NCBI GenBank assembly: GCA_026770705.1
Contig: JANJGN010000038.1
Span: 4,774,001-4,838,000 of the forward strand
From: Isurus oxyrinchus
Taxonomy: Eukaryota
Direction of reading: 5' to 3'
DNA length: 64,000 nucleotides
Shown here in pieces: positions 1,736 to 60,540 of the stretch. The notes under the pieces are model-generated. The model made no database searches and was not told the origin of the DNA. It saw nothing but the letters and a program-made list of their open reading frames with translations. Each line of letters starts with the position of its first letter. Within the stretch, counting starts at the first letter, position 1. The position numbers were made by a program, and so were the translations under genes.

Positions 1736-1774
1736 AGTTTTTGTACCAGTGGTAAGGGTTTATGTAACGTGGTG
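1736..1774 (-). other. Recombination signal sequence (23-RSS)
   Basis: Minus strand: heptamer CACCACG (1774-1768), exactly 23-nt spacer (1767-1745), nonamer ACAAAAACT (1744-1736), abutting the V coding end. Confidence 0.85.
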
Positions 1775-2082
1775 CTTCATAGCCGCGCAGTAACACACGG
1801 CTGAGTCAGAGAGCTGGGTGTCTGTGATGTTCAAAGGGATGTTTGTGTTGCTCCTATCCTGTACGGCTGAAAAGCGCTTTGCAAAAGCTGGTGCATTCTC
1901 TTCATTCCCAGCCGTGTGTCTGAGCAGCATATACTGAAGGCCTTTTCCCGAGTACTGTACGTACCAGAATAGGTAAGCAGTTGTGTATGTCACTGGGTAG
2001 ATACATGACAACACCGCAGTATCACCTTCACTCACTGCTACAATTGAGGGTGTTTGGGAAAGTCTCTCCTGTTGGCCGTATT
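1775..2082 (-). CDS. T-cell receptor alpha/delta-type variable (V) gene segment, V exon
   Basis: Ig V-set pattern: (K)YGQQERLSQTPSIVAVSEGDTAVLSC...YLFWYVQYSGKGLQYML...RFSA...LNITDTQLSDSAVCYCAAMK. It has both Cys, the WYxQ motif and DSAVxYC. Preceded by acceptor ttttccag (phase 1) and followed directly by a 23-RSS. Confidence 0.9.
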
Positions 2083-2550
2083 CTGGAAAACAATAACAGA
2101 ATGTTATCAATGCAACTTTTAGATTTTTTTCATTTGGACGAAATAGGCTTTCCAATGCACACGCACACGCGCACACACACGAGCTCACGTTAAATCATTC
2201 CCTTCAATACAACGGTTGATTGCATTTCGAGTGTGAAGACAACAACAAAAACAGGGAGCTTCAGCGATTTCACCCCTCAGTTGACTGATCCCAGGCCATC
2301 ATCGGTGTAATTTCCTTCTGGCAGTGTTCAGCCAAGGCTACCGTTTCTGCTGGAAATAGAGAAGCCCTTCTCCGGCCCGCTGAGACAGTGACAGGTCAGC
2401 TTGTGACTAATTTAGATACTGTACGAACACTCACTGACCAGTGAGCGAAGCCAAGGAAGCTGACCTCACCAATGGAGTGAAGAAAAATTGGAGGAAAAAT
2501 AACAATACAGTTAACAAAATAAAAGCGTTACAATCGCATGAAATACTTAC

Positions 2551-2632
2551 TTGGTTGAACATTTATGAGGAAAAGGAACACTTTGACGAATATTATTCTT
2601 GTCCAGGAGACACACTGGCGATCAGAAGACAT
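2551..2632 (-). CDS. Probable leader (L) exon of the TCR V segment
   Basis: ATG at 2632-2630 gives MSSDRQCVSWTRIIFVKVFLFLINVQP plus 1 nt, then a consensus donor GTAAGT. Phase 1 matches the V-exon acceptor. Hydrophobic core present. The implied intron is 468 nt. Confidence 0.6.
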
Positions 2633-9480: not shown

Positions 9481-9577
9481 ATGTTCTTTGAAATTCCAAC
9501 TGAACTTCGGATTGTCTGGGTGATTTATGATTTGCAAAGGATTTACTATCCGCTCCTCGCTGCTGTTGGCATTCCTG
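9481..9577 (+). CDS. GPCR gene 1 (GPR139/142-like orphan class A), exon 1
   Basis: MFFEIPTELRIVWVIYDLQRIYYPLLAAVGIP + G, then donor GTGAGT. The IYYPxxAAxGIP motif is shared with exon 1 of the other paralogs. Phase 1. Confidence 0.85.
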
Positions 9578-12319
9578 GTGAGTGATTATTTTAGAAACTT
9601 ATTTTATAAAACATCTTTCACCATGTTTGTTGTCCTTGCCCTTAACGTAAGTTAATTAATTTTATTCTCTGTAATTCTTGTGTCCTGTGACATGTAATGC
9701 CCTGTGCTTCTGTGAAGTAGCATTTCAGCAGTTGCTGATTCACTGTTCACAGTTCATTGGACCGTTTGTATATCTCAAGACTTGCTTCAAATGATTTTTT
9801 TCTTCAGAATTTGGCTGGTATAATATTTTATGCAATAAATATTAGTGATGAATTATAGCTATTGAACAGCTGCAGTCTGCTGTTTAAACTGAACCCCAAT
9901 ATCTGAGCAGAATATGTTGCGCAGGTATTGGTTTTGCAGTGCGATGCAGATAGTAATTTGCACTGATCTGCGGAAATTAGGGCAGACAGGAACGAGGGAA
10001 GATCTCACATAATAATTCAGCTCCAGGCAAACTCCGTTCCACCATCTCCCGCTTTGCCTAACAATAACTAAATTTAGATATTTAGGAGAGAATTTAAAAT
10101 GTAATAATTGTTCAACAATATTTGCTCCCCTCACCAACAATTGGCTCCGTTCCCATTTCTGTCCACAGACCTAATTCCCTTCCCTTGTCTCTGCATGACG
10201 TTATTTAGAGCTGCAAATCATTATCCTCCTCTCAAAGTTTTTTTTTTCAAAATGTGTCCTTGGGAAATGGATGCTTGTGACAAACTTCCATTTATTACCC
10301 ATCCGGAAGTGAGCTGAGAAGTTGTGCTGAGTCTTCTTGCTGAGCTGAAGTATTCCCTCTGCTGACTGTGCTCCTACCTGCTGTTAGGGAATTCAGGAAC
10401 GCTGATGAAGGGAGATGTTACCGTTCCAAGTCAGGATGGTGCGTTAGAGAAGGTCAATCTCACGGCATTGCACACCTTCTGCATTTTGCTGTGCTGGTAC
10501 GTGCTGTCGAAGTAGCCCCGGTGTGTTGTTGTAGTTGATTCTGTAGACATTCTTCCTTCATCCACAGAGGTGGAGGTGGAGAAATAGCAAGTTTAATGAT
10601 GGACGGACACTGATGGAAAATCTATTCCATTATTGAAGGTGATTCTGCTTATTGGGTGTTGCTCTGATAACCATACTGATGAGTAGTGAGCATTCCATTA
10701 TGTTTCAGATGTGAGATTTCCAGGCGTTTGATTGGGTTGGTGGGAGGCATGGTGTAGGGTGTGGGTGGAGGGGTGGCTGCTGGTGGGGACTGGTTCACCG
10801 TACTCCCACCAAACTGCTGAACACCGAACTTCCTCATCATGTTCCTCAGTTGCTGATATAGTTAATAGTTCCATCTGCTTAGCCACTGTTCTTTGCTGCT
10901 CCATTCTGTAGTCATTACCCCTGCCCTTGTAAATAAACAACCCCTGTTGCCTCAGTCTTTGTAAGCAAACACTCCATCTCTAACCTCTCTTTCCTCTACA
11001 AATTCCTTGTCCCTGCTGCTACCCCCCACGTTTCTGCCCCATCTTCCAGGGACACCATGCTTAAATCTTTCTAACCATTTTTCTACCTTATTACAACTCT
11101 TACACCGTCCTTAGCAAAGGCACAAATTATATCTTATGTGACTCTGCTAATGTCGAGCTGCCTCTCTTCCCTTTTGTCGACATGTCTGCAGCCTTTGGCA
11201 TGGGTGACCACAATGAAATATTAAGAGTTTCATGTTCTGAATTTCCTCCTAAATCCTTTGTCCTCGCCACAAACTTATCATCCTTTAAGATAATTCTTAA
11301 AATGTGTTCTTTATTGTTATTCACCCTAAGCCAGTCTTCTTTGACCTGATCTCCATTTCGCTCTTGTGTAATTTCCCTCTATCTGCAGCTAGTGTCTGGA
11401 GTCCATTGCCGTGAAATTAATACTGACTATATCATTAACCGGAACTCCTGATGCCAACAGTGGTGAATATTGCAATGTCTGCCGCTCTGCATATCAGGAC
11501 CGATCTGAAATCTTGATCCAGGAGCATGCATGGTAATTTCCCATGAACTTTAAACTTCAGATGGGCAGATTTGTATTGCCCAGGCCCCTCTAACAATGAC
11601 TCCAATACTGACTTTAGTGTTGGACTGTTGTGCCTGTTGTGTGACAGATGCTTGGCGTAGTATTTTCCCGCTATTAATTTCTAGCATGTGTCAGTGAATA
11701 ACTTTCAAGCAAAGCCCATGCACGCCCAACCCCCACCTACAGAACTCCCACATTCATCCCACACACAACAACCCACAACACCCCCAACTACTGACCCCAG
11801 AATATCTAATCTGACTCGATTGCCTTCCCCTCGATCCACTTGCACAGCTCTCACTAGCCATCGCCCGTCCATTCAACCCCCAACCGACTGCAAAGCACAT
11901 TAGCTACTCACCCATCCCGATCCCAACTGCTGACCACCCGCCATCTACGCACCTCGTACACAGCTCATTTCCCCCACCCCGCTATGGAGGCAAGAAAAAC
12001 AAGCTGCAAGGGTGGAAAAAGATACGGCTTTAATTACATTTACAATCAGCGCTGGTTATCCGAGTATCGCCACCAAATAGGAGGCCAGGACCATTAATTT
12101 TATGAATTATCTGACATATTAATTTAAACATGCATCAAAGCCCTGTGTTAATATTGCACCAGAATCTTCAGTTTCCCTGAGATAATAACACAGAAGAGTT
12201 TCATTCTATCCTCATCCAGCGTTTAAACAGTCGAGAAACTGGTAAAAATTGTAAATTTTCATAATTTGGCTGCTCGGGTACACAATCTAGAGAAAGCTAA
12301 CATGCAATATGTGTTATTA

Positions 12320-13545
12320 TTATCCATTCATGGGAAATGGGCTTCGTTGGCTGGGCCAGAATTTATTACCCATCACTAGTTGCCTTTGTGAAGGTGGTGC
12401 TGAGCTGCCTTCTTGAACTGCTACAGTCTTCGGGGTGTAGGCGCACCCAGAGTGCTGTTCTGAAGGGAATTCCAGGATTTTGGCCCAGCGACAGAGAAGG
12501 AACGGCGATATATTTCCAGGTCAAAATGGTGAGTGACTTGAAGGGGAACTTCCGATTGGTGGTGTTCACATCTGTCTGCTCCCCTTCTCCTTCTAGATGG
12601 TAGTGGTCGGGGTTTGAACGTGCAGCTGAAAGAGCCTTGATGAGTTCCTGCAGTGCATCTTGTAGATGGCACCCACTGGTGCTACTATGCAACAGTGGTG
12701 GAGTGTGTAAATATTTTTGGATGTGCTACCAATCCAGCGAGATGCATTGCCCTGAATGGTGTCAAGCTTCTTGAGCGTTCTGGGAGCTGCGCCCATCCAA
12801 GCAAGCGAGGAGCATTCCACTACACTCCTGACTTGTGCCTTGCAGATGGTGGACAGGCTTTGGCGGTGAGGAGGTGAGTTACACGTCGCACTATTCCTTG
12901 CCTCTAATCTGCTCTTGTAGCCATAGTATTTATATGGCTTGTTCAGTTCCGTTTCTGGTCAATAGTAAACCCCAGGATTTGATAGTGGGGGATTCAGTGA
13001 TGTTAATGCCATTGAATGACAAAGGGCGATGGTTGGGTTCTCCCTTGTTGGAGATGGTCATTGCCTGACACTTGAGCGGTGCACAAGATACTTGCCACAT
13101 GTCAGCGCAAGCCTGGTAATTGTCCAGCTCTTGCTGCATTTGAGCATGGGCTACTTCAGTACCTGAGGAGTCGTTAATGGCGCTGAACATTGTGAAATCA
13201 GTAGCGAACATCCCACTTCTGACTATGTGATGGAAGGAAGGTCATTGATGAAGCAGCTGAAGATGGTTGGGCCGAGGACAGTACCCTGAAGGAATGCTGC
13301 AGTGATGTCCTAGCGCTGAGATGATCGACCCCCAACAAACACAACCATCATCCTTTCTGCTAGGTATGGTTCGAAGCAGCAGAGATTTCCCCCCTGATTC
13401 CCATTGACTCCAGGTTTGCTAGGGGCCCTTGATGCCACACTCTACCAAATGTTGCCTTGATGTCAAGGGCAGCCGCTCTCACCTCCCCCCGGGAGTTCAG
13501 CTCCTTTTTCCATGTTTGAAACAAAGCTGTAATGAGGTTAGGATA
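12320..13545 (-). mobile_element. Non-LTR retrotransposon (CR1/L2 group, family B), 3' RT fragment
   Basis: Frameshifted RT motifs: AALDIKATFGRVWHQG, MFATDFTMFSAI (decayed FADD), MECSSLAWMGAAPRTLKKLDTIQ. Lies in the intron of GPCR gene 1. Confidence 0.85.
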
Positions 13546-13599
13546 CAGCAATATAGCAAGTGAATAGGATAATAAATGGCAGTCTTCCCTGTATTCGAG

Positions 13600-14838: not shown

Positions 14839-15740
14839 TGAACATACTGACTATTGTGACACTGTCTCGGGGAAGGTGCGGTCTCTCAAAATGTGTTTCC
14901 CTTTACCTGGTGTCCATGGCAACCGCGGATCTACTGGTCGTTATCCTTGATCTCATATTCAGGCAAATTGCTATTCTTTACTGGGCTCAGTTTCAGTTCA
15001 TGTGGAGGTTTAAAGTGTGTAATATCCATGCTGTCCTGCTTTATGCAGCCACAGATTGTTCTGTCTGGTTCACAGTCTCTTTCACCTTTGATAGATTTCT
15101 GGCTATTTGTTCCCAGAAGTTGAAAACAAAATATTGCACAGAGCATACGGCGGCTGTGGTTCTCGGAACAGTCAGTCTGCTATTCTGTGTGAAGGATACA
15201 TTCTGGTACTTTATGTATGTAGGTCATTATTCGCTTTCCAATGCTCCTTGGTTTTGCAAATTAGTGACGGATGCTGAATTCTCATCAATGTGGGCAGCAA
15301 TCGAATGTCTTCATTATATTTTAACACCATTTGTGCCATTTGTTTTGATTTTGATGTTGAACGCTTTAACTGTCAGATATATTTTACTGTCGAGCAGAGC
15401 CCGCAGGAGACTCCGGGCTCACTGCAGTGGGGAGAGACCCAGGGACCCACAGATGGAGAAACGCAGGAAATCCATCATTTTACTGTTTGCTATATCGGGG
15501 AATTTTATCCTGTTATGGTTAGTTTTTATGATAAATTCTGTTTGTAATAGGCTATATGTGTTAGATGCTATTCCTGTATACCTTCCTAGGTTTGTGCAGG
15601 AACTGGGATTTATATTTCAGTTCCTGAGTTGTTGCACTAACACGGCCATTTATGCAGTGACCCAGACTCAATTCAGAAATGAGCTGAAGAATGTGGTGAA
15701 ATATCCCTTTTCTGTAATTTTTAAATGTATTAAACAGTGA
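14839..15740 (+). CDS. GPCR gene 1, exon 2 (TM1 end to C-terminus); spliced protein about 332 aa, intact
   Basis: Acceptor ctttctcttccttacag. VNILTIVTLSRGRCGLS...MATADL (TM2)...VCN (TM3 Cys)...FTFDRFLAIC (DRY-like)...PWFC...LTPFVP...RRKSIILLFAISG...SCCTNTAIY. Seven hydrophobic segments across both exons. AATAAA at 16245. Confidence 0.92.
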
Positions 15741-19861: not shown

Positions 19862-19870
19862 TCACTTGAT
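19862..19870 (-). pseudogene. IGHM: IgM membrane exon TM2, copy A (IK-stop)
   Basis: Strong acceptor attgtctccttcttttacag|ATC AAG TGA, 140 nt after the TM1 donor. AATAAA on the minus strand at 19452-19447. Confidence 0.75.
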
Positions 19871-20010
19871 CTGTAAAAGAAGGAGACAATAATGAAGCAG
19901 ATATTTATGATCAGGTGCATTTATGTTATTACTTTTAATTGTTGAAATGTTTAGAAAATTTTCAGACCGCTTCTGCTAGATTGTAGCATGAGTGGATTGA
20001 ATCTTCTCAC

Positions 20011-36296: not shown

Positions 36297-36347
<51 letters not shown>

Positions 36348-42165: not shown

Positions 42166-45005
42166 GATATGAGGATTTCCCAATGTGAATAGATGAAAGC
42201 AGAAAGCCAAATTGTTCACAGTGCCTTACTCTATCACCATGGCCCTGTATCATCCCTCAACAATTTTGTCGGCCCTGCACTCTCACTACAGGCCTAAATG
42301 CATCGAAAATCATTCATTGTTTCGTCTATATCCCTACACTAAAAGAATCCTTGAAATTCACACATTGCTGCCTTTTCACTCCAGTCCTGTATCAATCCAA
42401 GGGGCATTCATACTGCTCGGCTCTCTCATTACATGCCTGTCTCAGTTCAAAACATTTCACATTGCCTAGCAATTCGCTTCAACCTGGTACGAACCTGGAA
42501 TAATTCACTCTGCCCTATTTTCTAAGTGTAAGCCTCTGGCAATCCGAGATATTTCACCCTGGTGTTTTATTCTCACAATAAGACTGTACCAATCCAAAAT
42601 AACTCACAATTTTCTTTCTTCTCACTATAGGCTAGTATCTATCCAAAATAATTGGCACTGCCCGTCATTCGCATTGCAGCACAGTATTCATTCAAAAATA
42701 TTCTCTCATTATAGGTATGTATCGAACCTAATCAATTATTACTCCCTATGGCCTTTTCGAAATGTAACATTGATCCGACTGCTTTACTCCCCCACCGCCG
42801 CTCCCTGCCCCCAACAACTGCTCTGTACAAATTCAAAACAACTCAGACAGCTCCTCGGAGTTGTCGAACCAACAAAATTATGCCAGGGTAGAACATTACT
42901 GCAGGTATATTACAGAAAGAAAAAACTCTTTAAAAGTTTACCAATATCTGCACTTAGAAAGGAAACTTAAGATTTCTACTATATTGTTACTTATATGTGG
43001 GTTTGTGAGGAATTCAGTATGAGGCTACAACTCATATGTATATCAATACTATACCACCGGATATAACCTAGCAATCCTATGTAAGAAAGCATAAGATTAT
43101 AAATCCACTTTATTGAACAATCTGGATATTCAAACAAATAATGATTTGAAGAAGTTATTCTTAAAATCTAGTATAATTTCTTCACCGTATAGTGTACATT
43201 TTTCTTAACTTTTAAATGGAATTCTCTCATAACTCAACCCTTTTTATCCTACAGATGGCTGAGCTATGTCTCTGTAGTTTTGTGTCTGGGTAATGGCTTT
43301 CACAGGGGCATGCGTCTTGTCTCTGTAGCTTACTGTACTATCTAGCATTGTTCGTTGTATTCTCTATTTTTCTCCAGAATTAGTTCTTATCAACATTTGC
43401 TAAACTGTGAATCCTTGAGGGTCAGATGTTTACCATATAGCTTCTACGGGTTTTTGGCTGCGCTCCAATGGCGAGACATTTAAGATTGATTTATGAGTTC
43501 CCAGGCGTTCTGTTTCTTGTGTTGACAGGATTTTTGGCAATGATACAGATGCTGCATAATATAGTTTAATTATTAATTCAAATTGTAATTTACTCCTCAA
43601 TTTCTTCATTAAATGGGTCATTTATTTTACATGCTTAGTTGTTAATTTACATTGATATACACGATGGCTGCGGTGTGTACAAAGCTCATCTAATTTGTTG
43701 ATGGATCATGCAAATACAGTTGAATTGGCAGGGAGTGACAGCTGATTCGCAGGATTTGTATGTGGGCCTCAGCTTTTCACCGCATTTAGAAGGATCAAAA
43801 TGAAGCAACAGAAAGTTTCGAATCCAAATTGCTGCCGAAAATAAGCCATGTGGTACAGTAAATAGTTTACAGAAGGACAGGACATTTCGAAGGGTTGTTG
43901 TTGGATAACTGAATGAGCAAACTGTGGGAGAAAGAATACAATTTGTGGAAAGGTGTTTTTCTCTGGCGCTTTATGTTTATCCATTGCACGTCACCATATT
44001 TTCTAATTAACGTGAAACTATAAATGATAGTGGTAAGTATTTTCCATATTTTTGTTTACCCGCCACATGTTTATTGGTGTTCGATTTGCAATGCGTAACT
44101 TTAACATCAATCATTGCAGTCGATGACCTGTGATGACCACCATTTTTAACTTCGTTGCTGCGGTTAACAGCCGCATTCAATTCTCCTTAGTAGTGCACTT
44201 TGTTGTCAAGGCTGTGAGATACCCTTCGGAGCCGGAATTCATTATACTCGTAGCCACATTATTTAGCTGAGCTAAATTTTGAAATCTCAGTGTTCGTTCG
44301 GAAAGCCCTGTGTTTGTTCCCTACTTCCGATCGCGTGTCTGTAGCCCAGCTCCGTGCCCCTGAGGAATTCTACTCTGTCGTCCTTCTGACGAGGCTCTAG
44401 GCCGAGGTCTTTCTGCTTTATCAGTTGAAAATCCTCACTACTGCTGCGAGACCTAATCTGCCACTACAGCAATCACTGAACTGCAAAAAAGCCTTTGATG
44501 CGCTTTGACTAGTTTCCACAAAGGCAAAGCCCAAATTGAATCAATGGTGTTCGCTCAAATTTTCTTTTTCATCGTACCTTGGTTCCTTCTGATATTTAAT
44601 AGGAATCCGTTATTACCCATAACTTATTTCCTGTCATTCGATTGGTTTCATTATTATAGCGGTTTAACGTTTCATAACGTTATTATTTACTGTATTTATA
44701 AATGAATAAATGTATTGAGCTTTGACCTGTATTTTAATGCCATCTTCAGGTTGTCCTTGTGTCAATTTAATACGTTAGTGAAGATCAAATCCCTCTATTT
44801 CTAGATTACATAAAATTTACATGAAACGGAAAGTAAGTGTTTTGTGTCATTTTATATTCCGACTTCCACTTTATTTGGGACAATATAAATAAAAAAATGG
44901 ACTAGCATTAATACATTGGCAAATTAATCAGTTCCAGCGTTGAATGACGTATTGATGGTCCACATGCCAAACGGATGTTGTAGCTGGGAGTTTCAGCACT
45001 AATTT

Positions 45006-45052
45006 TTCCCTTCTCTCTCCTTTCTCTCTCTCTCTCTCTCGCTCTCTCTCCC
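45006..45052 (+). repeat. (TC)n microsatellite forming the polypyrimidine tract of the GPCR relic
   Basis: Seen directly in the sequence. Confidence 0.9.
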
Positions 45053-45058
45053 TTACAG

Positions 45059-45215
45059 CTAACTTGTTGACTATCGTGATCCGTTCCCGAGGAAGATGTG
45101 GTCTTTCCAGATACGCAGAGTCCATGGCGGTGACAGATCTCCATGTTATTATCATTACACTGATATTAAGCCGGTTTACGGCTGTTTATTTTCCAGTCAG
45201 TTTTCTGAGCCACTC
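45059..45215 (+). pseudogene. Truncated GPCR exon-2 relic (fourth family member)
   Basis: After a (TC)n tract and ccttacag: ANLLTIVIRSRGRCGLSRYAESMAVTDLHVIIITLILSRFTAVYFPVSFLS. This aligns to the start of exon 2 of genes 2/3 with a 12-nt in-frame deletion. Similarity stops at about 45215. Not in the ORF track. Confidence 0.8.
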
Positions 45216-46369
45216 AAAAAACGAAACGGAAACATTCTGAATCTGAATTCTACGTTTCTTTTTCCGGAATTAAGTCTTTTCAATCTTTATTCAACTGTGA
45301 AGCCTTGAGGGTCAGATGTTTACTGTCTAGCTTCTCCGGATGTTTGGCTGTCCTCCAACAGCAAAACATTCAAGATTGTTTTATGTGTGTCTGCGATTTC
45401 TGTGTCTTGTGTTGACGGACGTTTTGGTAATGATACAAATGATGCACAATGTAGTTTAATTGTTACTTCAATAATGTCATTAAAACCAGAATTTCTTAGT
45501 TAAACAGGTCATTTATTTTACATGCCTAGATGTTAATTTAAATTGATATCGACATAAATTTAACTCGCGATGGCTGTGGTATGTACAAAGCTCATTTAAT
45601 TTGTTGATCGGTAATGTGAATACAGTTCAATTGACAGGGGGTGACAGCTGGTTCGCACGATTTGTATTTGGGTCTCAGCTTTTCACCGCATTTAGAAGGT
45701 ACGAAATGAAGTAACAGTAAGTTTTGTATCCAAAGTGCTGCCAAAAATAAGCCATGTGATACAGTAAATATTTTAGATAAGAAGAGGACATTGCGAAGGG
45801 TTGTTGTTGGATAACTGAAAGAGCAAGCTGTGGGAGAAGGAATATTATTTGTGGGAGGGTGTTTTTTTGTGGCGATTTGAGTCTAACCATTACAGATCAG
45901 CATATTTTCTAATTGGCGTGAAACTGTAAATGATAGTGGTATGTATTTTTCCATATTTTTGTTTACCCTCCACATGTTTATTCGTAAATTTATCAAATAG
46001 TTGCAATCGATTAACTGTTATGAAGAGCACTTTTAACTCTGTTGCTGCTGTTAACTGCTCCATTCAATTCTCCTAAACTGCATTTTGTTGTCAACGCTGT
46101 GTGATACGCATCGGAGTTCATGACTGATGTAATCCTGGCCTTAACTCCGTTTTCCTGCCAGACTGAGTAACCATCGGATCTCTTGTCGATCAATAATTTG
46201 TCTAACTATGCCTTGAATATATTTAGTGCCCCTGCCGTCTCTTGGTTTCTGGAGAAGACAATTCCAAAGTCTCCAGAACCTCCTCATCCCCTGATACTTT
46301 TGCCTATGAACCTTCCTTTATCAGTAACAATAGACCTAGATTTTGTCGTGGAAAATCACAATGAATAAA

Positions 46370-49370: not shown

Positions 49371-49421
49371 TCTAACAGTCTTTCGATGTAGCACAGAGCC
49401 CACTTGGAGCTTATGAGAGAA

Positions 49422-49491
49422 ATGCATGGGATACCAAAAGGTCTTGCGTTCGCCATTTACTATCCCGTTCTTGCAGCTATCAGTATTCCAG
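49422..49491 (+). CDS. GPCR gene 3, exon 1
   Basis: MHGIPKGLAFAIYYPVLAAISIP + G, donor GTAAAG. An in-frame upstream ATG at 49413 is possible. TATAAA at 49365. Confidence 0.87.
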
Positions 49492-50736
49492 GTAAAGTAT
49501 TAGGGTTAGTTACCAGTTACGAGAATCATTTTTCACTCTATCACTTCTTTAATTTAGCTGTACTGCTTCTCTAAGGTTCACCCCATTAAAAGGATAATTT
49601 GTTTTTTTAAAATGTTTTCCCCATTTTGCAGTATCCTTATCTCCACGTTTAGTGCATTCTTCTTTTAAATGAGATTAAACCTTCCCTTTCCTTGCAATAT
49701 TACTGGTCATTACTGGTCTCTTTTCTCCACTTTAAGGCTACAATTTCTCCCCTTCACGAGAACAGTTTCTTCTCATTGCCACTATACTTACTTCCATTTC
49801 AGGGATTACTATGTTTGCTTCGCCAATGCCGTTTTACCTCTTTAACTAAAACTTTTCTCCCAACTTAGCAGTGCCGCCTCTCAGTCTAAACGTAATTAGA
49901 TGTTGTTATTGTCATTATTAATGTGGGCGAAGTATTTAGCACACTAATATCACAGTGCAATGTAAATCAATTGTATTATTGACACAGTCACCATGGATGA
50001 TTTATCACGCTGTAAATGTAGCTCTATGGTGTTATTGACAGAGCTGTTGAATTACCTCACTTTGCCATGTGCATATATTGCTCCTTGCGCTGGAATGTGG
50101 ATAACAGCTATTTCTAAAGTATGATTTTGTATTCACGACCGGTCCTCAGTCTTTTGTTTTAGCTGAAATATAGCATATCGGGCAGTGCAACGTTGCTGAA
50201 GTCCAACAGTTGGGCTTGAACGCTAAACCTTTTGACTCAAAAGTGAGATTGCTGTAAACTGAGCCATAGTAAGCATGATCAGCTTTACTCGTGGCTGTGA
50301 AGTCTTGTTCCTTTGACTTCGAATTGTTACAGCTCAGATGCATCACATCTCCTTCATCTTCTTTTCAGTTAAGTAGTAGCTTTTCTTTTGCTGAACTTTT
50401 TTCAAGCTCTATAATGTATTTGTTAACCTTCGATTTTCCAATGTTTCAGAGTATTCTTATATTTTCCCGTCTCTGAACGTTGAATAAGAACAACTCTGAT
50501 TGTATTTCAGGGTCACAATGCAGGACGTTCAATGTTCACCTTGAGTTAGCCCTTGTGTTGCTGACAGTACAGAACAGATTGCTGTGTTTTAGGATATTTT
50601 CCTCCAGATCATCTTTCTGACATGCTAACTTGTTACTCTCTTTTCAACTGCTGCCTGACTGAGAATTTCCAACATTTTATGTTCTAAATTTCTTTCTCAA
50701 AATTGGCTATTCGCTGGCTGCGTTTCGCTGTCACAG

Positions 50737-51647
50737 CTAATCTGGTCGTGATTGTGATACTGACTCGAGGAAGATGCGGTCTCTCCAAATGTATCACTTA
50801 CTACTTGATGTCCATGGCCGTGACGGATCTTCTTGTCGGGATCACAGTTGTGATATTAAACCGGATTATAGGTATTTATTTCCCGTTCAGTCTCCTGGCC
50901 ATCACTCCGGTCTTCAGCCTCAGACTTGTGCTAAATTATGGAGTCATCGATTCTTCTGTCTGGGTAACAGTGGCTTTCACCTTTGACCGATTTGTAGCCA
51001 TTTGCTGCCAGAAGCTGAAAATTAAATATTGCACTGAGAAAATGGCGGCTGTGGTGATAGGAACTGTCTGTGCACTGAACTGTGTTAAAAGCATCCCCTT
51101 GTATTTTATGTGTGAGCCTGCCTTTATCATTGACAATATACCCTGGCAATGCAACTCAAAATCAATATTTTATACGTCACCTGCATGGGTCGCTTATGAA
51201 AGCATAATCGCCGTTTTAACCCTTTGCCTCTCCTTCTTCCTTATTTTACTGCTCAATGCTCTGACCATCAGACACATTGTAGCGGCCAGTCGAGCCCGCA
51301 AGAGACTCCAGATCCAGAGCAATGGAGAGAATCAAAGTGACCCAGAGATGCAGAAGAGAAGGAAGTCCATGGTTTTGCTCTTCTGTATCTCGGGCAGTTT
51401 CATCCTGTTACATTTGTTAAGACTTATAAACTTCCTCTATGTCCGAATTGCGAATCTTAGCTATGTGGACTCTACCAATTTCAATGAATCAAATTTTCTT
51501 ATGGAGGAAAGCGCACGTATGCTTCAGCTCCTGAGTTCCTGCATCAATCCGTTTATTTATGCAGGGACCCAGAGTAAATTCAGAGAAGAGTTAAAGAATG
51601 GTGTGAAATTCCCATTGAATCTGCTTGTTAAATTATTTAAAAGATGA
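50737..51647 (+). CDS. GPCR gene 3, exon 2; spliced protein about 326 aa, intact
   Basis: Acceptor ttcgctgtcacag. ANLVVIVILTRGRCGLSKC...MAVTDLL...FTFDRFVAIC...RRKSMVLLF...SCINPFIY...helix 8 KFREELK. AATAAA at 51652. Confidence 0.92.
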
Positions 51648-53614
51648 TAACAATAAAATCCAACATGAGTCATAATGTGTGTTCCATCCATTGCTGCTTT
51701 TGTTTATCTCACACAAAAGTTTTGTCTCCCAGAAGCAGCGTCATTTTCTTTGAGTCCCTTTTCCTCCGTGTGAATTTAACAATGTATAAAGAATGTTGCC
51801 TGCTCCCAGTTAGTTTTTAGTTGTCTTCCTCGTGCTAGCAGGGGCCTGGTACATCCCTACCAGCCCCCAGGGCCTTGGAAATCCATGTGGGAGACAAAGA
51901 GTCCGGCTTAGATCTGATATTGGATACCAAAATTTAACAATTTAAGGTAGGAACCTCAATGTTATTGCTTTGTGTGGTTTATACCTTATAGGTAAAAGGC
52001 GTTCTGAAACGGTAACAAATGCTGCTCCCATGCATTGTTCTCAACTCACTAGTCACCGCTTCACACTCGCTATCCCTTGTCATTAAACATAGGAATAAGG
52101 GGCAGGAAAAAAATGAACAACAGTAATTCGCCTTCTACACTTTCAATCGGACAATTATGATGACATTTCCAGTGTTATCAAACAGCATAAATCGAGTCTA
52201 ACAACAGTGTCTTATTTTCAACGGGCATCAATCATGAACAACAGAATTATTAAAAATAACTCATCAAATGTAATGGCAAATTCAGAATTTTATGGCCCCT
52301 CTCGGCGGCGAGATTTTTTGGTTCTGCAAATGCCAATGAGCTTTTGAATGACTCGCCACATTTTACAGCACTGCCGCTCCCCACTGACCATGCACAAACA
52401 CATTTCTTTCCATCCTGATAGCCACAAAATGTCACGCCAGAGATATTATGGGCTACTCATTGCAACAAATCATTATCCCAATCTCGGGTGAGTACTGCAC
52501 ATGCGCTTGGGGTATGGCAGTTCTCCTGCTCCCCAAGTGCAAAATGCGGCACAGGTCTCAATATTTGTCACTGTTGCCAGCGGAAGATCGTGAGTAAGGA
52601 AATAATTATTTGTTATACCTCGAAAGGTCTTTCAATGTCAGGCGGAAACTGATCCATTAGCCTTCGCTTTATATGCCCTTTGTCCAGATTATTAAATAAC
52701 CCCAGATGTGATTAACATCATTAGTAAGAACATAATTGAAATTCTGCTGCTACTTGAAATTTCACTCATTTGTCAGCAATTGAAATGCACGAATGAGTCA
52801 CTCGCCAACTACATATCATTTGAAAGGTTTTTCCTACGTCTACCTCTTGAACATAACGGACTGCAAGAAGAAGAAACATCTTCCCTGTTCCCTTGTTAAC
52901 ATCTTCCCTGCTCCATGCAGCATGTGAACGACTTCTTCTCAGTTGGAATATATCGATAAATTTGCAGTCGGGCTGAGGAAGCAAGTCCCATCCTGCAGTG
53001 TCCTCATTTGCAATGTTTCGCAGTATACCGCATCCTTGTGCTACTGAGGTTGGATGATTAGTTGAAACTTCGTCCAGTCATTGAAAACGTGCAAGACCTC
53101 TCCCCAATGTGAATGGTGCGATGGGTTTATTTATTCATGCTGTGCTAACTAGTGAAAACTTTGTCCACATCCATTGCATTGGAGCACTCTCTGTCCAGTG
53201 TGCATCACATTCTTTTTGCTGTCACACTGACGTTTGAAATATAGTCACACTTACCATACTGGCGACCATTTTTCCAATCTGCTTGGTTCTGTTTTACGCC
53301 TCCTTGTTCCCTTCTCGCTGCTTTGCAGAAATTGCTGACTATAGCTGGTTTCTGGTTTCAGTTATGCATTGACCAGTGCAATTTTGGATCCTATCCCGAA
53401 GTTGTTGACCCATAGCAAATGGAGAAGGATATTCTGGTCCTGGAATCTTCCCTGGTCTTCAATTAGTGCACTGATAATATGCAGAATGTCTCTATTTGGA
53501 CACCTAAGTTTAAAGCAGTTGGTACCAAATCCTATCAATCTCAGTTTTGATATTTTCACTTGAACTCTAGTCTCTATGTCTCGTTGGTAGACAATTACCT
53601 TGGTGTATGTTGGA

Positions 53615-54150
53615 ATAGTGGTCAGGTTCATGGACTAGTAAATCTGAAGGCAAGGTTAGTGATTCAAGGACGAAAATGTACATCCCACCACGTCAACTGA
53701 TGAACATAAATTCAGTTCACGAAAGTAAGCTGAAAATTAAAAAAGAGCAATTATGAATGATGACCATGAAACTACAGCATTCTCATGAATTAGCACAATC
53801 CGTTTCATTCATATACTTTCGTGAAGGAATTCAGTTGTCTTTCCCAAGTTTGGCCTCTATGTGACGCTATGCCCAGGGAGATGCAGTGGAGTAACAACTT
53901 CCCCCTTAACTGGCCTAGCAAGCGGGAGAAAATGTTTGAAACTAGAACCGATGGAACACCCGGCATCGAGCTAAGCACCAGAAACAACAAAAAGACAGTC
54001 AGCTCTGTCGATCCTGTAAAGTCTTCTTCACACACATGCGGATGCATGAGATCTGCCCCAGAGAGCATCCAGGCAGCAGGCTGACATAATCATATTTCGA
54101 ATCGTACTGTTCAGCCAATATTCCAGGTTTCTATCACCATTCAGAGTTAC
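53615..54150 (+). mobile_element. Deu-domain SINE-like sequence followed by a LINE 5' fragment
   Basis: Same head and core as the other copies (tgaccatgaaact...ggcctctatgtgac...cttaactggcctagcaag). Confidence 0.55.
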
Positions 54151-55619
54151 GTTCGGCCATACCGCGAAAAAAATATCTTAAAGTGTTGGGCGTTTTTGTC
54201 CACAACTAGAAAGTGACCTGCACCAAACTGGCCCAATGACAATTAAATAATGATTAAGTTCAAATACCTCTTTGATGTTTATTTAGAACAATTAGATCTC
54301 CTGACCTTAAATAAACTTGTTATCTTTAAAAGAGCCGAACCTTTCCACTCAAAATGAATGTCCATATTGATTGGTTAGTTTCTCTGTCACTATCAAACAA
54401 CGTGGCGTTTCCGTTTGCATATTTGCTGTTAGTCTTGGAGCCGATGCAATTATGCTGCAGGACACCCATCACAAAACATGTGTCACACTTTGTTACAAAT
54501 ACATAAGAATTTTTTATAGACGAGAGTTCTGGCGACGGAACAAGAAGCGTAAACTTAAAGTAAAAAGTAATTATCCTCTTGGTTGGATTTGTGCATTTTG
54601 AGAAATTGCTATTAAAGTGGACGTCTGGTTAGCAGTTACATGTAACAATTGTGTTTCACCTCTGAGACGACACGTAAACAACAATGCCCGATATCTAGCT
54701 TAGTAAACTTACAGATCGACTTCTATTTCAAAGTCTTTTCTTAATTACATGTTCATTTGAACTTTGTGAAATTAAGAAGACTTCATGATTTAAATTAGTG
54801 TGTTTTCTATGATCGGCCGGAGTCTACAAAACAGGGATTGGAAATTATATGTAGCAAAGCAAAAAGAGGTTAATAAATCAATGAAACAGAATTGCTCTGT
54901 TTTAAGCCACACCTTGGTCCATATCTCATCTCGGTTTAATGATGTGCTTGAATCCCTGATTACTTTAATTGTCCCACTTAAGGTATTTGAACAAAGCGTT
55001 GGTTGTAAAAAGTGATACTGTAATTAAGCCATTAGAGCCAGTAATCACAAGCTGAAAAAGATGAAAGTAATTCAAAGGCAACTATGTAACATGGAAATAA
55101 ATCTGAAAATCTCATAAAGAAACAAAAAGAAAAAACGCTGGAAGTTATCAATCGCTTCACCAGCTCCTTGACAAAAACATATTCACTGAACTGGGTACAA
55201 TACACAGGGACCTGTGACAGTGCCGTGTCTATTTTAAAATAATTATCTATAAATAACATTTAAAGCAGCGGTAATATGATGCTTTTCTAGTAAACTTCTA
55301 AATAATCCCTTGCGGAGCTCTGTTCCCTGCAGAGAGAGAATTGTTAAATTTATGGGTGAATCAACATTATTTTTAAGGGACAGTGAACTTTGCATTCAGG
55401 GGACCTTAATGATTGAATTTAGGAGAAGATGATCATTGTAGTTAGGGGACATTTAAAGATTTTATTTAGCAGCCAGTGATCATTATGGTTATGGTACAGT
55501 GGTCATTGTTTTAGGAGACAGTGAAAATTGTATTAGGGGACAGATATCATTCCATTTACAGGGCAGAGAGCATTGTATTTAGGGTCAGAGCAGACTATAT
55601 TCAGGGAGCCATTGTCATT

Positions 55620-56760
55620 TTCACCGAACTTCCGAATTCGGTACGTGGGGGTGGGAGGGGTTGTGCGCAGTAAGTGCCCCAGAAGATGCACCCGGGGTCC
55701 CCACAGGAAATTCTCATATAAACATTACACAGATATTGCACAGGAACTTCAAACTTCCGATGGGAAATTATCCTGGATGCCTTGGAATCATCTAAAAATC
55801 AAATTTAAATTGCAGAGCATACGTAGCTCCACCACTCTTAGCAGAACAGGTATCCAGGAAAAGTTAGGAGATTTGAAATAATTTCCTACTTCCCGATTCC
55901 CCACTTGACCCCGAATATTCCCCTCCACCATTCCTCACTCGGTTGCCCTGATTATCCTCCTGACAGCCCGACTACCTTCCTACCCCGGACTACAACCCCA
56001 TCCCCCAGAATAACCCCACTAAAAAAACACCACCCGATTATTCCTCCCTCCACAAATCGTCTCACCCATGCCTCGACTGACCATTAGACACCCACAGACA
56101 CAAAATACCCCTGGACTAATTCTACACCCTCCGACCTATCCTACCTACTCCACCTATCCTAATCCCAACGTATCCTATTCCCCTGAACGATGCTACCACC
56201 CTACCCTTCCTATCCCATTCCACCTACACTAAACCCGGGACCATCCTATGCCCCTGACCCATCCTGCCCCACTCAACTCATCCAACCAGCCAGCCACAGA
56301 TTACATCACTGAACCATCCTACCATACTCCACCATTCTACCCCTGATCCATCCATCCAGAATGGCAGTCCCAACCCCACTCCTACCTCCTACCCATCATA
56401 CAGCACTCCAAGTATCATACCCTGAATCATCCAATTCTCCTAGCCCAACCTACACCCCTCAACCCATCCTGCCTCCAAGAACTATCCTACAGTCTGGACT
56501 ATTCTAACCCACTGGACCTATACTACCCACTCTACCTCCCCGACCCAACAGACATCCTCAACCAGCCAACCCGTCCGACCATGTCTGTCCCGAGCTATCC
56601 TGCCCCACTTGAGCTGGACTACAAGCCCGATCATTCCTCAACTGCCAACGAAACCTACTCCTGACACAAGTTACACTACGTCAACTGTTCACAACACCTT
56701 ACACATTCTGTCAGTTCAAAGCATCCTAACTCACGCCGGCTTTTCTAATCCTGATCTACT
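55620..56760 (+). repeat. Single arm of the same element with C-rich low-complexity tail
   Basis: caggaacttcaaacttccga...gcagaacaggtatccagga matches 62480-62600, followed by ccc.ga/cctac-rich sequence. Confidence 0.55.
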
Positions 56761-56779
56761 CTTCCCCTGACACATCCAT

Positions 56780-57420
56780 TGACTAGAAACTGAACTGGGC
56801 TAGCCATCTAAACACTGTGGCTACAAGAGCAGGTAAGAGGCTAGGAATGCTGTGTCGATTAACTCACCTCCTGATTCCCCAAAGCCTGCCCACCACCTAC
56901 TAGGTGCAAGTCAAGAGTGTAATTAAATACTTCCCACTTGCCTGGATGAGTGCTGCTGCAACAACGCTCACGAAGCTTGACACCATCCAGGACAAAGCAG
57001 CCCGCGGGATTGACCCCCCATCCACAAATATTCACTCCCTCCACCACCGGTGCACAGTGGCAGCACTATTTGCCATCTACAAGATGCGCTGCAGGAATTC
57101 ACCTTAGACTGCACCTTCCAAACTCACGGCCACTACCTTCTTGAATGACAAGGGCAGCAGATATATGGGAACTCCAACAACTGGAATTTCCCCTCCAAGT
57201 CACTCATCATACTGACTTGGAAATATGTCGCTGTTCCTTCAATGTCTCTGGGTCAATATCCTGGATCTCCCTCCCTAACAGAAACATAGGTGTACCTACA
57301 CTACATGGATCACAGCAGTTCAAGAAAGCAGCTCATTAACACCATGTTCTCAAGGGCAATTACGGGTGGGCATTAAATGCTGACTGGACCTTGGACACCC
57401 ACATCCATGAATGAATAAAA
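56780..57420 (+). mobile_element. Family B LINE, 3' fragment
   Basis: QVKSVIKYFPLAWMSAAATTLTKLDTIQDKAA...SLHHRCTVAA, homologous to 12.3-13.5 kb. Further pieces at about 10250-10610(-), 25420-25830(+) and 38870-39170(+). Confidence 0.8.
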
Positions 57421-60272
57421 AAACTGTTACAGAAGCATCACTTTACCCTTTGACTTTTTAACTGATATTGTGCCTAATTGTGATGAAGTATTGATATCCG
57501 ACTCCAACATTGACGGAGTAAATGACGCTTTGGTCAATTACGTTGAGTGACCACATGTGTTGGGCTCCATATCCTCTTGCAAGTAATTGACCAATTCCCT
57601 TTTGAAGAATTTTCTGCGGAGTGCTCGCACAGATTGCCTGAATAAACAAACTTTCCTGATGGAAAGACACGAAGAGTTGGGCTTGTGATTCTTATACAGT
57701 TTTCGACATATGCAGTGTTTACTCGTGCAATTGAATTCATACCAAAGAGCCAAAAGTCGTTTTTTTCTGATCAAGAGGGTTTTCATTACTCTGAATGGAT
57801 ATGCACAATGTAAGTCTATTTACTGTACCGTGAACTGAGGCTGTAACAGAAAAGGAGAAAAGCTTTGCTACAGCTGTACAAATCCCTGGTTAGATTACAT
57901 GCTGGATTCCTTGTATATTTCTGGGAACGGAACATTAGAAATGTTAAACATTGGTCTAGAAGCAGGCCGGCACTGATCTACCAGAATGCTTGGAAGGTTT
58001 TAATAATTAGACTCAGGCGCCATGCCAGTTATTACAGCAGGACAACTGTTTGTTTCCGCCTGGTGCCTCAGCTTGTAATGAATTTCAGGATGTTAGAATC
58101 TATGTCCAGCAAATATCCAAATCTATAAGTAATTTTACTCAATCATTAGTAATACCATCCAAATTCAAACAACTGTACTCAGTATCTGTACCATGATTCA
58201 ATGTTTAAAATCAAAGTTGTAATATTTGTATTCTCATTTGGAAATTAGGCACTCCCCACTTTGCAACACAGAACGAGTTGTAAACCTGGCGGAGTTGCAC
58301 CATTTGTTGCAGCAAAGAAACAACTCCGGCCTGGAGTGCTGCTTTCAAAGGTCAGTTGTGATCGGTTGATCAGAAGTAATGTGTGCATCTGTGTAAACAG
58401 CAAGCAGAAACATCTGTCCCCATTGCAACCCATATTCAGCCTTACACCACCATCTTTAGTCAGTTAACTTTTTGTGCATTGCGCATTATCAAAGCCCATC
58501 TCACTCCTTTCCTTCACTTCTACTCTCCGCCTCTATAGCTGTTCTCGACCAGTGGACACGTGAATTTTCCAAAACCTGATGCGAAATTTTAACTCTCAAC
58601 CCTCGTTTCATTCTTTCAATCAATAAGTAATTCAGGCTAGTTTTGACAATTCGCATGATATCAAGTGTTGTGACTAGCCAATCTGGTAATTCGTGTTTTC
58701 TTTTAGTTTTAGTAATAATAATTGTTGTGGGGAAGCATGGATTTGTGTAGTGGGTAAACAATAATTACAGTTCACTGGATAGTCCATGTCTGCATAAAGA
58801 GGCCAGATCTGCCAGTGTGAAATCCTTAAAGAATAGGCAGCTTTTCGTGGTGTGGACGTACTATCTGCAGTTGTCTTCATAAGGGGTTCAAGCAGTCATG
58901 CAGCTCCCAGATCAAAGAAACTAAAAGTGCCAGAGAAGGCATTAGGGTTTGTGTATTAGAGAGGCCCCGGTTTTTGGGCCACATCACTTTGTTTCGGCTA
59001 ATTTCCTTTTTGTGTCATCGAGGCCCCAATGTCCCACGGGTTCTGCTCCCTCTCAAGCCTGAGGGAATACAAATTCTAGCGAAAGCTTGTAGAATTTCTG
59101 TTCAATAGTATGTCTATATCAGATCTGCATTGGTCCCAATCTCTCGGAATCGTTCTCATGTTTTTTGCCCGGTTCAGCATCAGAGGGCCGACAAGATTTT
59201 GTCTCGATGGTGTTTATGTGCCATATATTTCCCGGCCTCTAGGAATTAGCCTATGGTTGTGCAAACGGCAATATCAGTGTTATATATCGGCTCTGCAACT
59301 GCTCTGCTTTGTAAGTGTTTAGCCGGACAGTGCGGGGGGGGGGGGGGGGGTGGTGGGTGTGGGGGGGCGGGGCGGTGGTGGCGTGGGGGGGGCACTTTAC
59401 TCCGTGCCTAACCAGAGCTGTAGAGGCCTGGGAATATTTTATGTGATATGTAAAGAACGTATTCTTCCTCAAACATTGTGCTGCATTAACCTCTGAGGAA
59501 GAGTGCCGTTATTATTTAGAACGACCCGACGCTGACTGTGACAGATCAGAGACGTCACTGAGTTGCTCTTCGCCGTTCCATCATTCTGTTTCTGGTTTTC
59601 ACCATAAAAGGGAAGGGGTAAACATTTCTTTACACGGGTGGGGCGTTGTGTGGAGAATCGCTCTTTGACTGAAGGGCCTCGAGTTCAAACACTTTGCAGA
59701 CAGGAATCGTGATAAATACCAGTCGGGAAAGGAGGAAAACGTGAAATAGGGAAAATGCAGCCATGTCGATGAAGCGAGGAGAAATGAATTCAGCAAAGTC
59801 ATACTTGATGCAATTATCATTCAAGATTTATTAACAATTTCAGAGCATGTTTTATAGAAATGGTTCATTTAAAGGTCACAAAAGTGAATTTATCGTTCGA
59901 GCGTCACATTGAGACAACCCCATATGCTCTGAGCTGCCAACTGTAAGTAGAAGTGTAACATAAGCCAGAAAGAGAAAACAGAAATTTAGCATAAAGGGAA
60001 GGGGACAACAGCGAAAGAAAAGTCATATTTACAAATGCAATTCAAGCTATAGTGAAATTATAAGTTACAGTTATTTTAAAATAATAATTATCTCGCGCAT
60101 TTCAGACAGAAAGGCGGAAATACTGTCCACGAATGTCTCAATTACAGATTCAGAATCATAAAATGAAGACATTTCACTGTTAGCGTCACCAGGAGAACAT
60201 ATTTTAAAGTCACAATACAGAGATCTCAATAAACAACTGAGGAACAGCCAAGGAGGTCCGAAAATCAACCGA

Positions 60273-60281
60273 TCACTTAAA
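60273..60281 (-). CDS. IGHM: IgM membrane exon TM2, copy B (FK-stop)
   Basis: Acceptor ttttctccctcttttacag|TTT AAG TGA, 131 nt after TM1 and homologous to copy A. AATAAA on the minus strand at 59832-59827. Confidence 0.75.
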   Translation of the reverse strand, partial: FK

Positions 60282-60412
60282 CTGTAAAAGAGGGAGAAAA
60301 TATTGCAGCAGATATTAATGACCTGGGACATTTATGTTGGAGTTTTCAATCAGTGTAATATTTGGAGATTTTTCCTGTCATATTGATGTGTGAGTGGATT
60401 GAATCTTCTCAC

Positions 60413-60540
60413 CATCACCAGAGTGACGGCAGCGCCATAGAAAATGCTCAAGAAGAACAGGGCGATGAATGTGGAAGCAGTGGTCCAGATGTTCCCGTTA
60501 TTGTCCTCAGAGTCTTTAATCCAGATGTGGCCCGTGGAAT
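60413..60540 (-). CDS. IGHM: IgM heavy-chain membrane exon TM1, copy B
   Basis: (D)STGHIWIKDSEDNNGNIWTTASTFIALFFLSIFYGAAVTLVM, 128 nt. Acceptor atccctctag, donor GTGAGA. The canonical WTTASTF...LSIFY antigen-receptor TM motif is retained. Confidence 0.88.

Follow-up and report, generated by a model that had tools for sequence, protein, structure and literature searches.

A multi-copy block of orphan GPCR genes, a TCR-type V segment and IgM 3'-end stumps in the shortfin mako Isurus oxyrinchus, probably spread by segmental duplication

In mammals, olfactory receptor genes adjoin the TRA/TRD V genes or are interspersed with them, and the usual reading is that these are co-resident birth-and-death families. 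The elasmobranch antigen receptor complex (AgRC) is characterised by linkage to TCR alpha/delta C, IgW, UrIg2 and PSMB5. As described by Flajnik et al. 2025 (PMC12227049), it contains miniclusters of IgM and of IgNAR; between the IgH clusters there are TCR alpha/delta-type V exons and also pseudogenes, and some IgM models are given there as missing V or pseudo. The stretch of DNA analysed here, referred to as the window, comprises 64,000 nucleotides of I. oxyrinchus (assembly GCA_026770705.1, contig JANJGN010000038.1, positions 4,774,001 to 4,838,000, forward strand). Seven elements are seen in it, in the order TCR-type V (minus strand), GPCR1 (plus), IgM M1/M2 (minus), GPCR2 (minus), a GPCR relic (plus), GPCR3 (plus) and IgM M1/M2 (minus). 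All seven were confirmed, with the order and strands of the original prediction. The two IgM M1/M2 stumps of the window are designated TM1 and TM2, whereas TM3 and GPCR4 lie immediately to the right of it.

The V exon (1775-2082, minus strand) has an open frame and a Pfam V-set match (E 2e-13), and is accompanied by a recombination signal sequence (RSS; 1736-1774, minus strand) with a degenerate heptamer, a 23-bp spacer and a near-consensus nonamer. It is 38-48% identical to the V segments of contig C26, as compared to about 30% for VH, and TCR alpha chains are among its single-domain PDB matches. As judged by these comparisons, the segment is a TCR alpha/delta-type V, resembling TCR V more than VH, and bears a 23-spacer RSS. 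No intact leader exon is found upstream of V: each of the 20 copies inspected has a stop ahead of its likely donor. IgM-based queries revealed no C exons other than those of IgM across 664 kb, and a search for full-length TCR chains gave no match. A Pfam search for the TCR alpha C domain matched nothing anywhere, including the controls, and hence carries no weight.

The GPCRs of the window match Pfam 7tm_1 with E values of 1e-16 to 1e-20. GPCR1 is an intact two-exon gene of 332 aa on the plus strand; its exon 1 (9481-9577) encodes the N-terminus and the first half of the receptor's TM1 helix and ends in a phase-1 GT donor, and exon 2 occupies 14839-15740. GPCR3, also on the plus strand, with two exons and intact (329 aa), has exon 1 at 49413-49491 with a phase-1 GT donor and exon 2 at 50737-51647. 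GPCR2 (31932-34300, minus strand; exon 1 34300-34231, exon 2 32839-31932) is likely a pseudogene, since it contains an in-frame TAG at 32018-32016, near TM7. The exon-2 relic (45055-45210, plus strand) lies within a 1.9-kb local duplication (43369-46116). GPCR3 carries DRF (DRY-like) and NPFIY (TM7 NPxxY-like) motifs, a helical bundle is predicted for it, and genes of its type are probably functional class A receptors. Selection was assessed as omega against a neutral spectrum derived from the flanks. GPCR3 shows an omega of 0.62 (P 0.0005), i.e., purifying selection among copies, the value for GPCR1 is not significant (0.87, P 0.24), and that of the V exon is 1.29. In this genome the family numbers at least 259 loci, with many broken copies, and its size fits oddly with the paucity of GPCRs in cartilaginous fish reported in PMC8455134.

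The receptors had been described as GPR139-like. GPR139 is their best PDB sequence match (E 8e-8 with a single sequence, 2e-14 with a profile) and the second Foldseek match, the structural alignment giving 21-22% identity. By fold, GPR139 and peptide receptors are not told apart, and the score of the TRH receptor nearly equals that of GPR139. An Atlas query with a horn shark homologue returned GPR139-labelled chordate clusters and FMRFamide-receptor-like look-alikes. The agonist-site residues F109, H187, W241 and N271, as given for GPR139 in PMC5430874, are aligned with Y, A, H and R of GPCR3, with uncertainty in TM5, and three of the four (H187, W241 and N271) differ. A distant resemblance is thus retained but orthology is not, given the 21-22% identity, the changed agonist site and the many copies. 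With respect to GPR139/GPR142, NCBI automatic shark models bear the label 'probable G-protein coupled receptor 139'. The alignment of GPR139 starts in the middle of the TM1 helix, where exon 2 of the shark GPCRs starts, which presumably is the position of the GPR139 intron. GPR139, which responds to L-Trp or L-Phe and is expressed in brain, is single-copy, whereas the shark GPCRs form a multi-hundred-gene family.

The IgM-derived elements turned out to be remnants. TM1 (18440-20157, minus strand) comprises M1 (20138-20011), M2 (19870-19862) and 3' flank, and TM2 (59533-61045, minus strand) comprises M1 (60540-60413), M2 (60281-60273) and flanks, both without C exons. Their M1 protein is 75-81% identical to that of complete IgM clusters in the same genome. 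Along 1.7 kb, TM1 and the IgM type next to it are 84% identical; TM2 shows about 70% identity to both intact types and, on this comparison, derives from an older IgM lineage. The IgM-homologous stretch is only 1-3 kb of the 3' end and stops 18 nt (TM1) and <0.6 kb (TM2) upstream of M1. The view that the TM pairs represent IgH clusters is therefore not upheld: V, D, J and C exons of their own were not found, VH, D, J and CH1-CH4 are absent upstream on the same strand within ~25 kb, and there is no VH or CH match within about 175 kb of TM1 or TM2. The nearest IgM clusters, ~205 kb to the left and ~170 kb to the right of the window, form the opposite arms of one large inverted repeat, with no CH exons between them. 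Germline joining of the neighbouring IgM is rejected, since its VH, RSS and separate J can be seen. The stumps still have the M1-M2 intron and intron DNA upstream, and retrotransposition of IgM mRNA is therefore rejected as their source.

At C20:77.086-77.126 Mb, the order is VH-CH1-CH2-CH3-CH4-TM-GPCR4-TM2-GPCR3, in a copy that is 85-92% identical to the window plus right flank and keeps their order throughout; the arrangement at C26:5.91-5.95 Mb is the same, but the IgM there is decayed. Since the older C20 copy keeps a whole VH-CH1-4 IgM before the matching TM, TM3 is a deletion stump. The attached ancestral state is observed for TM3 only, for neither TM1 nor TM2; this pair, the window's own, likely consists of deletion stumps too. 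A CH3-CH4 relic without TM adjoins a GPCR at C26:5.87 Mb, indicating that other IgM parts were also left behind. In this genome, 43 of 150 TM matches lack CH4, which calls for caution in annotation, as many shark IgM TM and TCR V matches are such stumps.

Frame, length and all splice dinucleotides are intact in 38 of the 43 orphan TM copies viewed, a proportion that counts against reading the stumps as dead. It could be accommodated by exaptation, in which orphan M1/M2 would be spliced to an upstream exon such as GPCR exon 1, with a small membrane protein as product or else an alternative 3' end. In line with this, a same-strand GPCR exon 1 lies upstream of each stump (GPCR2 of TM1, GPCR4 of TM2, and an exon-1 relic of TM3), and the donors of GPCR exon 1 share phase 1 with the M1 acceptors, although nearly all Ig exons are in phase 1 and the phase compatibility is weak evidence for that reason. 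On the other hand, stops, a frameshift or lost splice sites occur in the most diverged orphan copies, and the exon variant density equals the flank level. Omega for the orphan M1 is 0.84 and 0.80 (P 0.38 and 0.31; with 129 nt there is little power, and the count is of separate variants instead of changes placed on a tree), and that for the attached IgM M1 is 0.25 (P 0.005). An unweighted pN/pS of 0.5 for the orphan M1 vanishes once the mutation spectrum is corrected. The omega values of TM1 versus its parent IgM type (0.21-0.71) and of TM2 versus intact IgM (mostly 0.2-0.45, range 0.21-0.90) could reflect past or present constraint. All in all, exaptation appears quite improbable.

The window is one copy of a cassette composed of TCR-type V, GPCRs and IgM M1/M2 exons, which recurs in ~25-30 copies with constant spacing. 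In this genome, GPCR3 copies are found at 38 loci (90-100% identity), 14 of them on contig C38 alone, and V copies at 30 loci (87-100% identity). When the lists were compared by eye, GPCR3 was tail-to-tail at 8-9.4 kb in 24 of 24 TM2-type matches. GPCR1 is 10-14 kb from V in 19 of the 30 V copies. Both in the window and in most copies, GPCR1 and GPCR3 show the predicted tail-to-tail pairing with a TM, but TM3 does not, being head-to-tail upstream of GPCR4. C38 and C26 each carry IgM, IgNAR and TCR-type V, and IgNAR clusters flanked by GPCRs constitute a second repeated unit. The repeated fixed-spacing copies bear out the proposed co-duplication of GPCRs with TCR V and IgM-derived DNA. The distances of GPCRs and TMs also correlate (rho 0.69, n=20 and rho 0.47, n=21), as is expected for neighbours within a duplicated block. 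An assembly artefact, either a mis-join or a copy number inflated by uncollapsed haplotypes, might be suspected from the 5,558 contigs of the assembly, the many copies on unplaced contigs and a few near-identical copy pairs that are possible haplotigs. However, copies differ by 1-15%, with private indels and deletions, and the colinearity of paralogous copies (83-97% identity) persists for tens of kb on contigs C20, C26 and C38, in agreement with contiguity. An artefact of either kind has scarcely any likelihood, and the diverged colinear copies make a mis-join very unlikely.

The GPCR2/3 clade is nearly confined to contigs with immunoglobulin genes: 124 of its 129 matches are on IgM/IgNAR contigs. 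GPCR1 belongs to a clade of Ig-free arrays, with 0 of 75 matches of its wider relatives on Ig contigs; its relatives at 64-66% identity are on 29 contigs, all without an IgM match. No listed GPCR lies within 300 kb of any of the 58 canonical-type IgM clusters, and no GPCR is seen near the main IgM array in 200 kb read directly. For the GPCR2/3 clade, the anticipated association is borne out as confinement to IgM/IgNAR-bearing contigs; the family as a whole is not enriched near antigen-receptor genes. The GPCR2/3 clade is, by sequence, old and shark-wide, its members being found in sharks that we take to represent six orders. An IgM C search yielded no contigs of chromosome level. Three catshark members share one 133,841,611-bp sequence, which is compatible with antigen-receptor chromosome 17, whose coordinates reach 133.54 Mb in the portion of table S1 of PMC12227049 available.

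The near-confinement of the GPCR2/3 clade to IgM/IgNAR contigs, its members in several orders and the catshark sequence, as well as the IgNAR unit, the purifying selection on GPCR3 and the adjacency of GPCRs to three separate IgM 3' ends, would suit a functional linkage, with the GPCR2/3 clade an old resident of the AgRC, expressed in lymphocytes and held in place by shared chromatin or IgH 3' regulatory DNA, and the IgM 3' stumps kept as enhancers or terminators. The lack of listed GPCRs near the 58 canonical clusters and the many broken GPCR copies speak against it, as do the stump flanks, which are no more conserved than the exons, and possibly the horn shark members, which are spread over at least five different long sequences. 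We consider this linkage doubtful. Somewhat less plausible again is that the orphan GPCRs are functional residents of the AgRC, expressed in lymphocytes under IgH/TCR regulatory DNA and expanded along with IgM and IgNAR clusters, with captured IgM 3' ends as regulatory modules or spliced membrane anchors; if true, the oldest adaptive immune system would have a receptor array that has gone unrecognised. No RNA run is listed as containing 50700-60600, and six probable DNA runs from four studies, which contain 32-36% of the sequence words, were left out of account. In four presumed RNA runs, no contigs cover GPCR3 or TM2 at 95% likeness, which is not evidence on expression. At 85% likeness, the listed pieces on TM1 and GPCR1 deviate in about 10-13% of letters, a level that intact IgM and paralogues would give, and repeats swamp the tables, so they are not evidence of expression either.

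Spread of the block by segmental duplication inside a shark IgM/IgNAR/TCR-V region, with dead stumps carried as passengers and the receptors probably hitch-hiking too, is the likely explanation. The fixed repeated geometry, the absence of C exons and the older copy with a whole IgM upstream of GPCR4-TM2-GPCR3 are directly observed. An old shark-wide orphan GPCR clade would have been interspersed with IgM clusters, and at least three separate deletions would have taken V to CH4, leaving 3' ends of 1-3 kb. A GPCR of a second clade (GPCR1) may then have joined from the Ig-free arrays, and unequal crossing-over and inversion would have amplified the block together with IgM clusters. For GPCR3-type genes, linkage to antigen-receptor genes is most likely a matter of living in the same duplication-prone region and not of common regulation, for which nothing here gives support, although the near-confinement of the old GPCR2/3 clade to Ig contigs is not necessarily predicted by passive drift. 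The block offers a readable record of IgM cluster death and of TCR V orphon spread alongside it, and the GPCR2/3 clade may serve as a marker to find and order unplaced AgRC contigs.

The GPCR family is a third, undescribed gene family embedded in the shark antigen-receptor complex, a model for the origins of IgH and TCR loci. As originally supposed, no description of a GPCR-IgH/TCR linkage was found in the mainly non-subscription literature searched, and text searches of PMC12227049 with its supplements, PMC7677710, PMC8455134, PMC12294341 and the supplements of PMC11372145 gave none. The AgRC, as far as its description was available, has IgM and IgNAR miniclusters and TCR-type V among IgH clusters in common with the window region; unlike this region, GPCRs are unmentioned in PMC12227049 and its two supplements, and neither isolated M1/M2 stumps nor a repeated cassette of GPCR, V and TM are described in the available part of that account. 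The M1/M2 exons, intron and 3' flank of the window stumps derive from this genome's IgM miniclusters (in sharks V-D-D-J-CH1-4-M1-M2), of which the stumps are the 3' end only. As in the shark block, a class A GPCR multigene family lies among TCR V genes in the mammalian TRA/TRD locus, but the shark GPCRs are two-exon genes, GPR139/peptide-receptor-like and not olfactory, and are also mixed with IgM and IgNAR. With this system, it can be tested directly whether loci of this kind repeatedly carry GPCR arrays next to their TCR V genes.

All elements named in the original prediction are present in the window (C38:4,774,001-4,838,000; assembly size 4.98 Gb). A TCR alpha/delta-type V-set exon (V, 2082-1775, minus strand) is followed by an RSS whose spacer is 23 bp long. 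There are three long 7tm_1 frames and one GPCR relic, and two minus-strand IgM M1/M2 membrane-exon pairs with intact splice sites, TM1 (20138-20011 and 19870-19862) and TM2 (60540-60413 and 60281-60273). In every full-length GPCR the first exon is short and stops midway through the receptor's own TM1 segment; GPCR1 (332 aa) and GPCR3 (329 aa) are intact, and GPCR2 carries an in-frame TAG. Just left of the window (C38:4767384-4773123), the same strand carries two further TCR-type V segments, of which one has a canonical heptamer and the other a frameshift; the trio is kept on contig C26. To the right (C38:4840121-4858953) were seen a fourth gene, GPCR4, with an 18-nt in-frame deletion, a third orphan pair, TM3, a GPCR1-type exon 1 that lacks its exon 2, and another lone exon 1; this set has an inverted mirror, at 93-97%, to the left of the window. 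At C38:4635726-4643907, five identical TCR-type V pseudogenes stand in tandem with a period of 1,981 bp. Interspersed-repeat fragments at window positions 12317-13543, 29183-30559, 35352-36354 and 56778-57421 are abundant among RNA contigs, and some contain reverse-transcriptase-like open frames.

Contrary to what had been proposed, the TM pairs do not represent IgH clusters; they are orphans, homologous to IgM at its 3' end only. In the 664 kb surrounding the window, VH and CH exons occur only in two complete clusters of a second IgM type. One lies about 205 kb to the left and the other about 170 kb to the right, on the opposite strand, and the arms of a large inverted duplication carry them. 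Their M1 sits 5.6 kb after CH4; the distance is about 3 kb in three complete clusters on C26. In this second type (C38:4550471-4569114 and 5005456-5026908) the VH is divergent, at about 50% to the main type, the V-J interval is compact (~1.2 kb) and the RSS is degenerate; 49 of 107 clusters share the spacing of this type. Among 150 scored M1 matches out of 219 candidates genome-wide, a CH4 is present no more than 8 kb upstream in 107 and absent there in 43. Of these 43, 36 have a listed GPCR within 15 kb, four have one at 19-33 kb and three, on C26, are far from any. This C26 trio (32314158, 34569338, 37547926) is inside the main IgM/TCR-V array, near clusters of V matches and with no listed CH4. 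IgM homology starts 18 nt before M1 in TM1 (84% over 1.7 kb), ~0.5 kb before it in TM2 (71%) and 1.4 kb before it in TM3 (window+73.6 kb; 80%). TM1 and TM3 fall with the neighbouring IgM type, TM2 being an older lineage, which implies three or more separate events. The protein P0129, at 91% identity to shark IgM CH4, is filed under a bacterium (742-bp contig), probably owing to host contamination.

A surviving ancestral arrangement is found at C20:77.086-77.126 Mb, which reads VH, J, CH1-CH4, TM (with a stop), GPCR4, TM2, GPCR3 and relics; at 85-92% identity it runs colinear with the window, starting at 38.7 kb and continuing through TM3. At C26:5.91-5.96 Mb the same array has a decayed IgM and the three V segments attached. 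This establishes TM3 as the terminal part of an IgM cluster that lay 4 kb from a GPCR gene, and TM1 and TM2 presumably share this origin. The window's copy lacks the IgM body and has a duplicate of the GPCR1 upstream region in its place. A CH3-CH4 relic without TM adjoins a GPCR on C26; therefore, IgM loss is not specific for TM retention. The GPCR/V/TM block is best explained, and was likely produced, by deletion and segmental duplication.

The proposed co-duplication of the GPCRs is borne out for TCR V and IgM TM by repeated spacing and, for TM, by correlated distances. Of 129 GPCR3 loci scored, 38 are at 90-100%, and of 150 V loci scored, 30 are at 87-100%; for 19 of these 30 a GPCR1 copy lies 10-14 kb away, and 26 have a listed GPCR within 20 kb. 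All 24 TM2-type matches (40 scored; compared by eye) are tail-to-tail with GPCR3, 8-9.4 kb apart; some 15 GPCR3 copies have no TM2 match beside them among those listed, and in the copy immediately to the left of the window M1 has been lost. TM1 was present at 4.4-5.5 kb in 19 of 20 GPCR1 loci fetched, not an unbiased rate, as most were picked from loci with a listed TM. Pairwise GPCR and TM distances correlate (rho 0.69, n=20; rho 0.47, n=21; permutation P 0.0002), with trees that are partly discordant. The correlation speaks for co-duplication only, since it is expected between any two neighbours inside a duplicated block. As a rival reading, a functional link of the GPCRs to antigen-receptor genes in immunity seems unlikely. 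Some near-identical copy pairs may be haplotigs, which would suit an assembly artefact, but the block copies are diverged and yet colinear, making a mis-join very unlikely and such an artefact most improbable.

A tree built from 45 proteins, 23 of them from regions read here and 22 from the 120 listed homologues, divides the GPCR family into two clades at 100/100. The GPCR2, 3 and 4 clade includes horn, sevengill, saw, whale, zebra, bamboo, great white, cat and smoothhound shark homologues; GPCR1 clusters with genes from C85, C110 and C29. The predicted enrichment near antigen-receptor genes is clade-specific. It is seen for GPCR3-query loci (124/129 on contigs with an IgM CH4 or IgNAR C match, 89/129 within 500 kb of one) and close GPCR1 copies (53/55 on such contigs), but not for the 64-66% GPCR1 relatives (0/75), which spread over 29 other contigs. 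In 200 kb across three of these, dense GPCR arrays contain no TM, V or CH, and 20 kb around one GPCR3-clade gene on C33 contains no Ig features. Among the GPCR matches listed, none of 58 canonical IgM clusters and at least 26 of 49 second-type clusters have a GPCR within 300 kb. A second repeated unit holds a cluster identified as IgNAR by its VNAR motifs, and GPCR3-clade genes are found at distances of 38 and 90 kb from it. This IgNAR-type cluster, at C38:2908790-2931179, shows a single V and five C exons; ten matches to its type of C exon are listed, on C38, C42, C100, C126 and C26. Three catshark members of the GPCR2/3/4 clade lie on one 133,841,611-bp sequence, which, as a hint only, may be chromosome 17, a match leaning partly on the presumed chromosome length. 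PMC12227049 (table S1) assigns the catshark antigen-receptor complex to chromosome 17, where its coordinates reach 133.54 Mb. Ig-free arrays at C85:430001-530000 and C110:930001-1000000 have about one gene per 14 kb (12 near-full exon-2 matches in 170 kb). Given GPCR1-relative genes on 29 contigs, the family may reach a thousand or more loci in the genome; no account of this expansion was found in the literature.

GPCR1-3 are class A receptors. Their best solved-structure match is GPR139 (E 8e-8, at 21-22% identity), and a profile search gave GPR139 at 2e-14 and the TRH receptor at 1e-12. Four residues, F109 among them, are important for GPR139 agonists according to PMC5430874, and F109 alone has a similar partner in GPCR3; this pocket comparison does not favour aromatic amino acids as candidate ligands. 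A GPCR3 homologue search gave 2,099 matches among 4,494 candidates, with sharks only in the 120 listed. These genes are a distant, expanded paralogous family, and the name GPR139 is an automatic NCBI label.

Selection was assessed by comparing distinct variants among copies with a mutation spectrum from TM introns and 3' flanks. Omega was 0.62 for GPCR3 (n=21, P 0.0005) and 0.87 for GPCR1 (n=20, P 0.24), the exon-2 frame being open in 18/21 and 16/20 copies, respectively; V gave 1.29 (n=20), with no open leader found in 20 copies. M1 of complete IgM clusters gave 0.25 (n=5, P 0.005), and orphan M1 gave non-significant values of 0.84 (n=20) and 0.80 (n=21) by this crude method, which has low power on 129 nt. 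Frame and splice sites are kept in 38 of 43 orphan TM copies, and TM1 and TM2 compared pairwise with intact IgM mostly give an omega <0.7; both count against dead stumps. Exaptation of the orphan M1/M2 exons is a quite improbable reading.

TCR V exons between shark IgH clusters are already described in PMC12227049 (sections 6 and 15); a text search of that paper and its supplements found no mention of GPCRs. No description of orphan GPCR-antigen receptor linkage or of orphan IgM M1/M2 stumps was found in the literature searched. The GPCR component of the shark antigen-receptor region is real and apparently new to the literature. The mixture of GPCR and TCR V genes in the shark resembles the mammalian TRA/TRD locus with its olfactory receptor genes.
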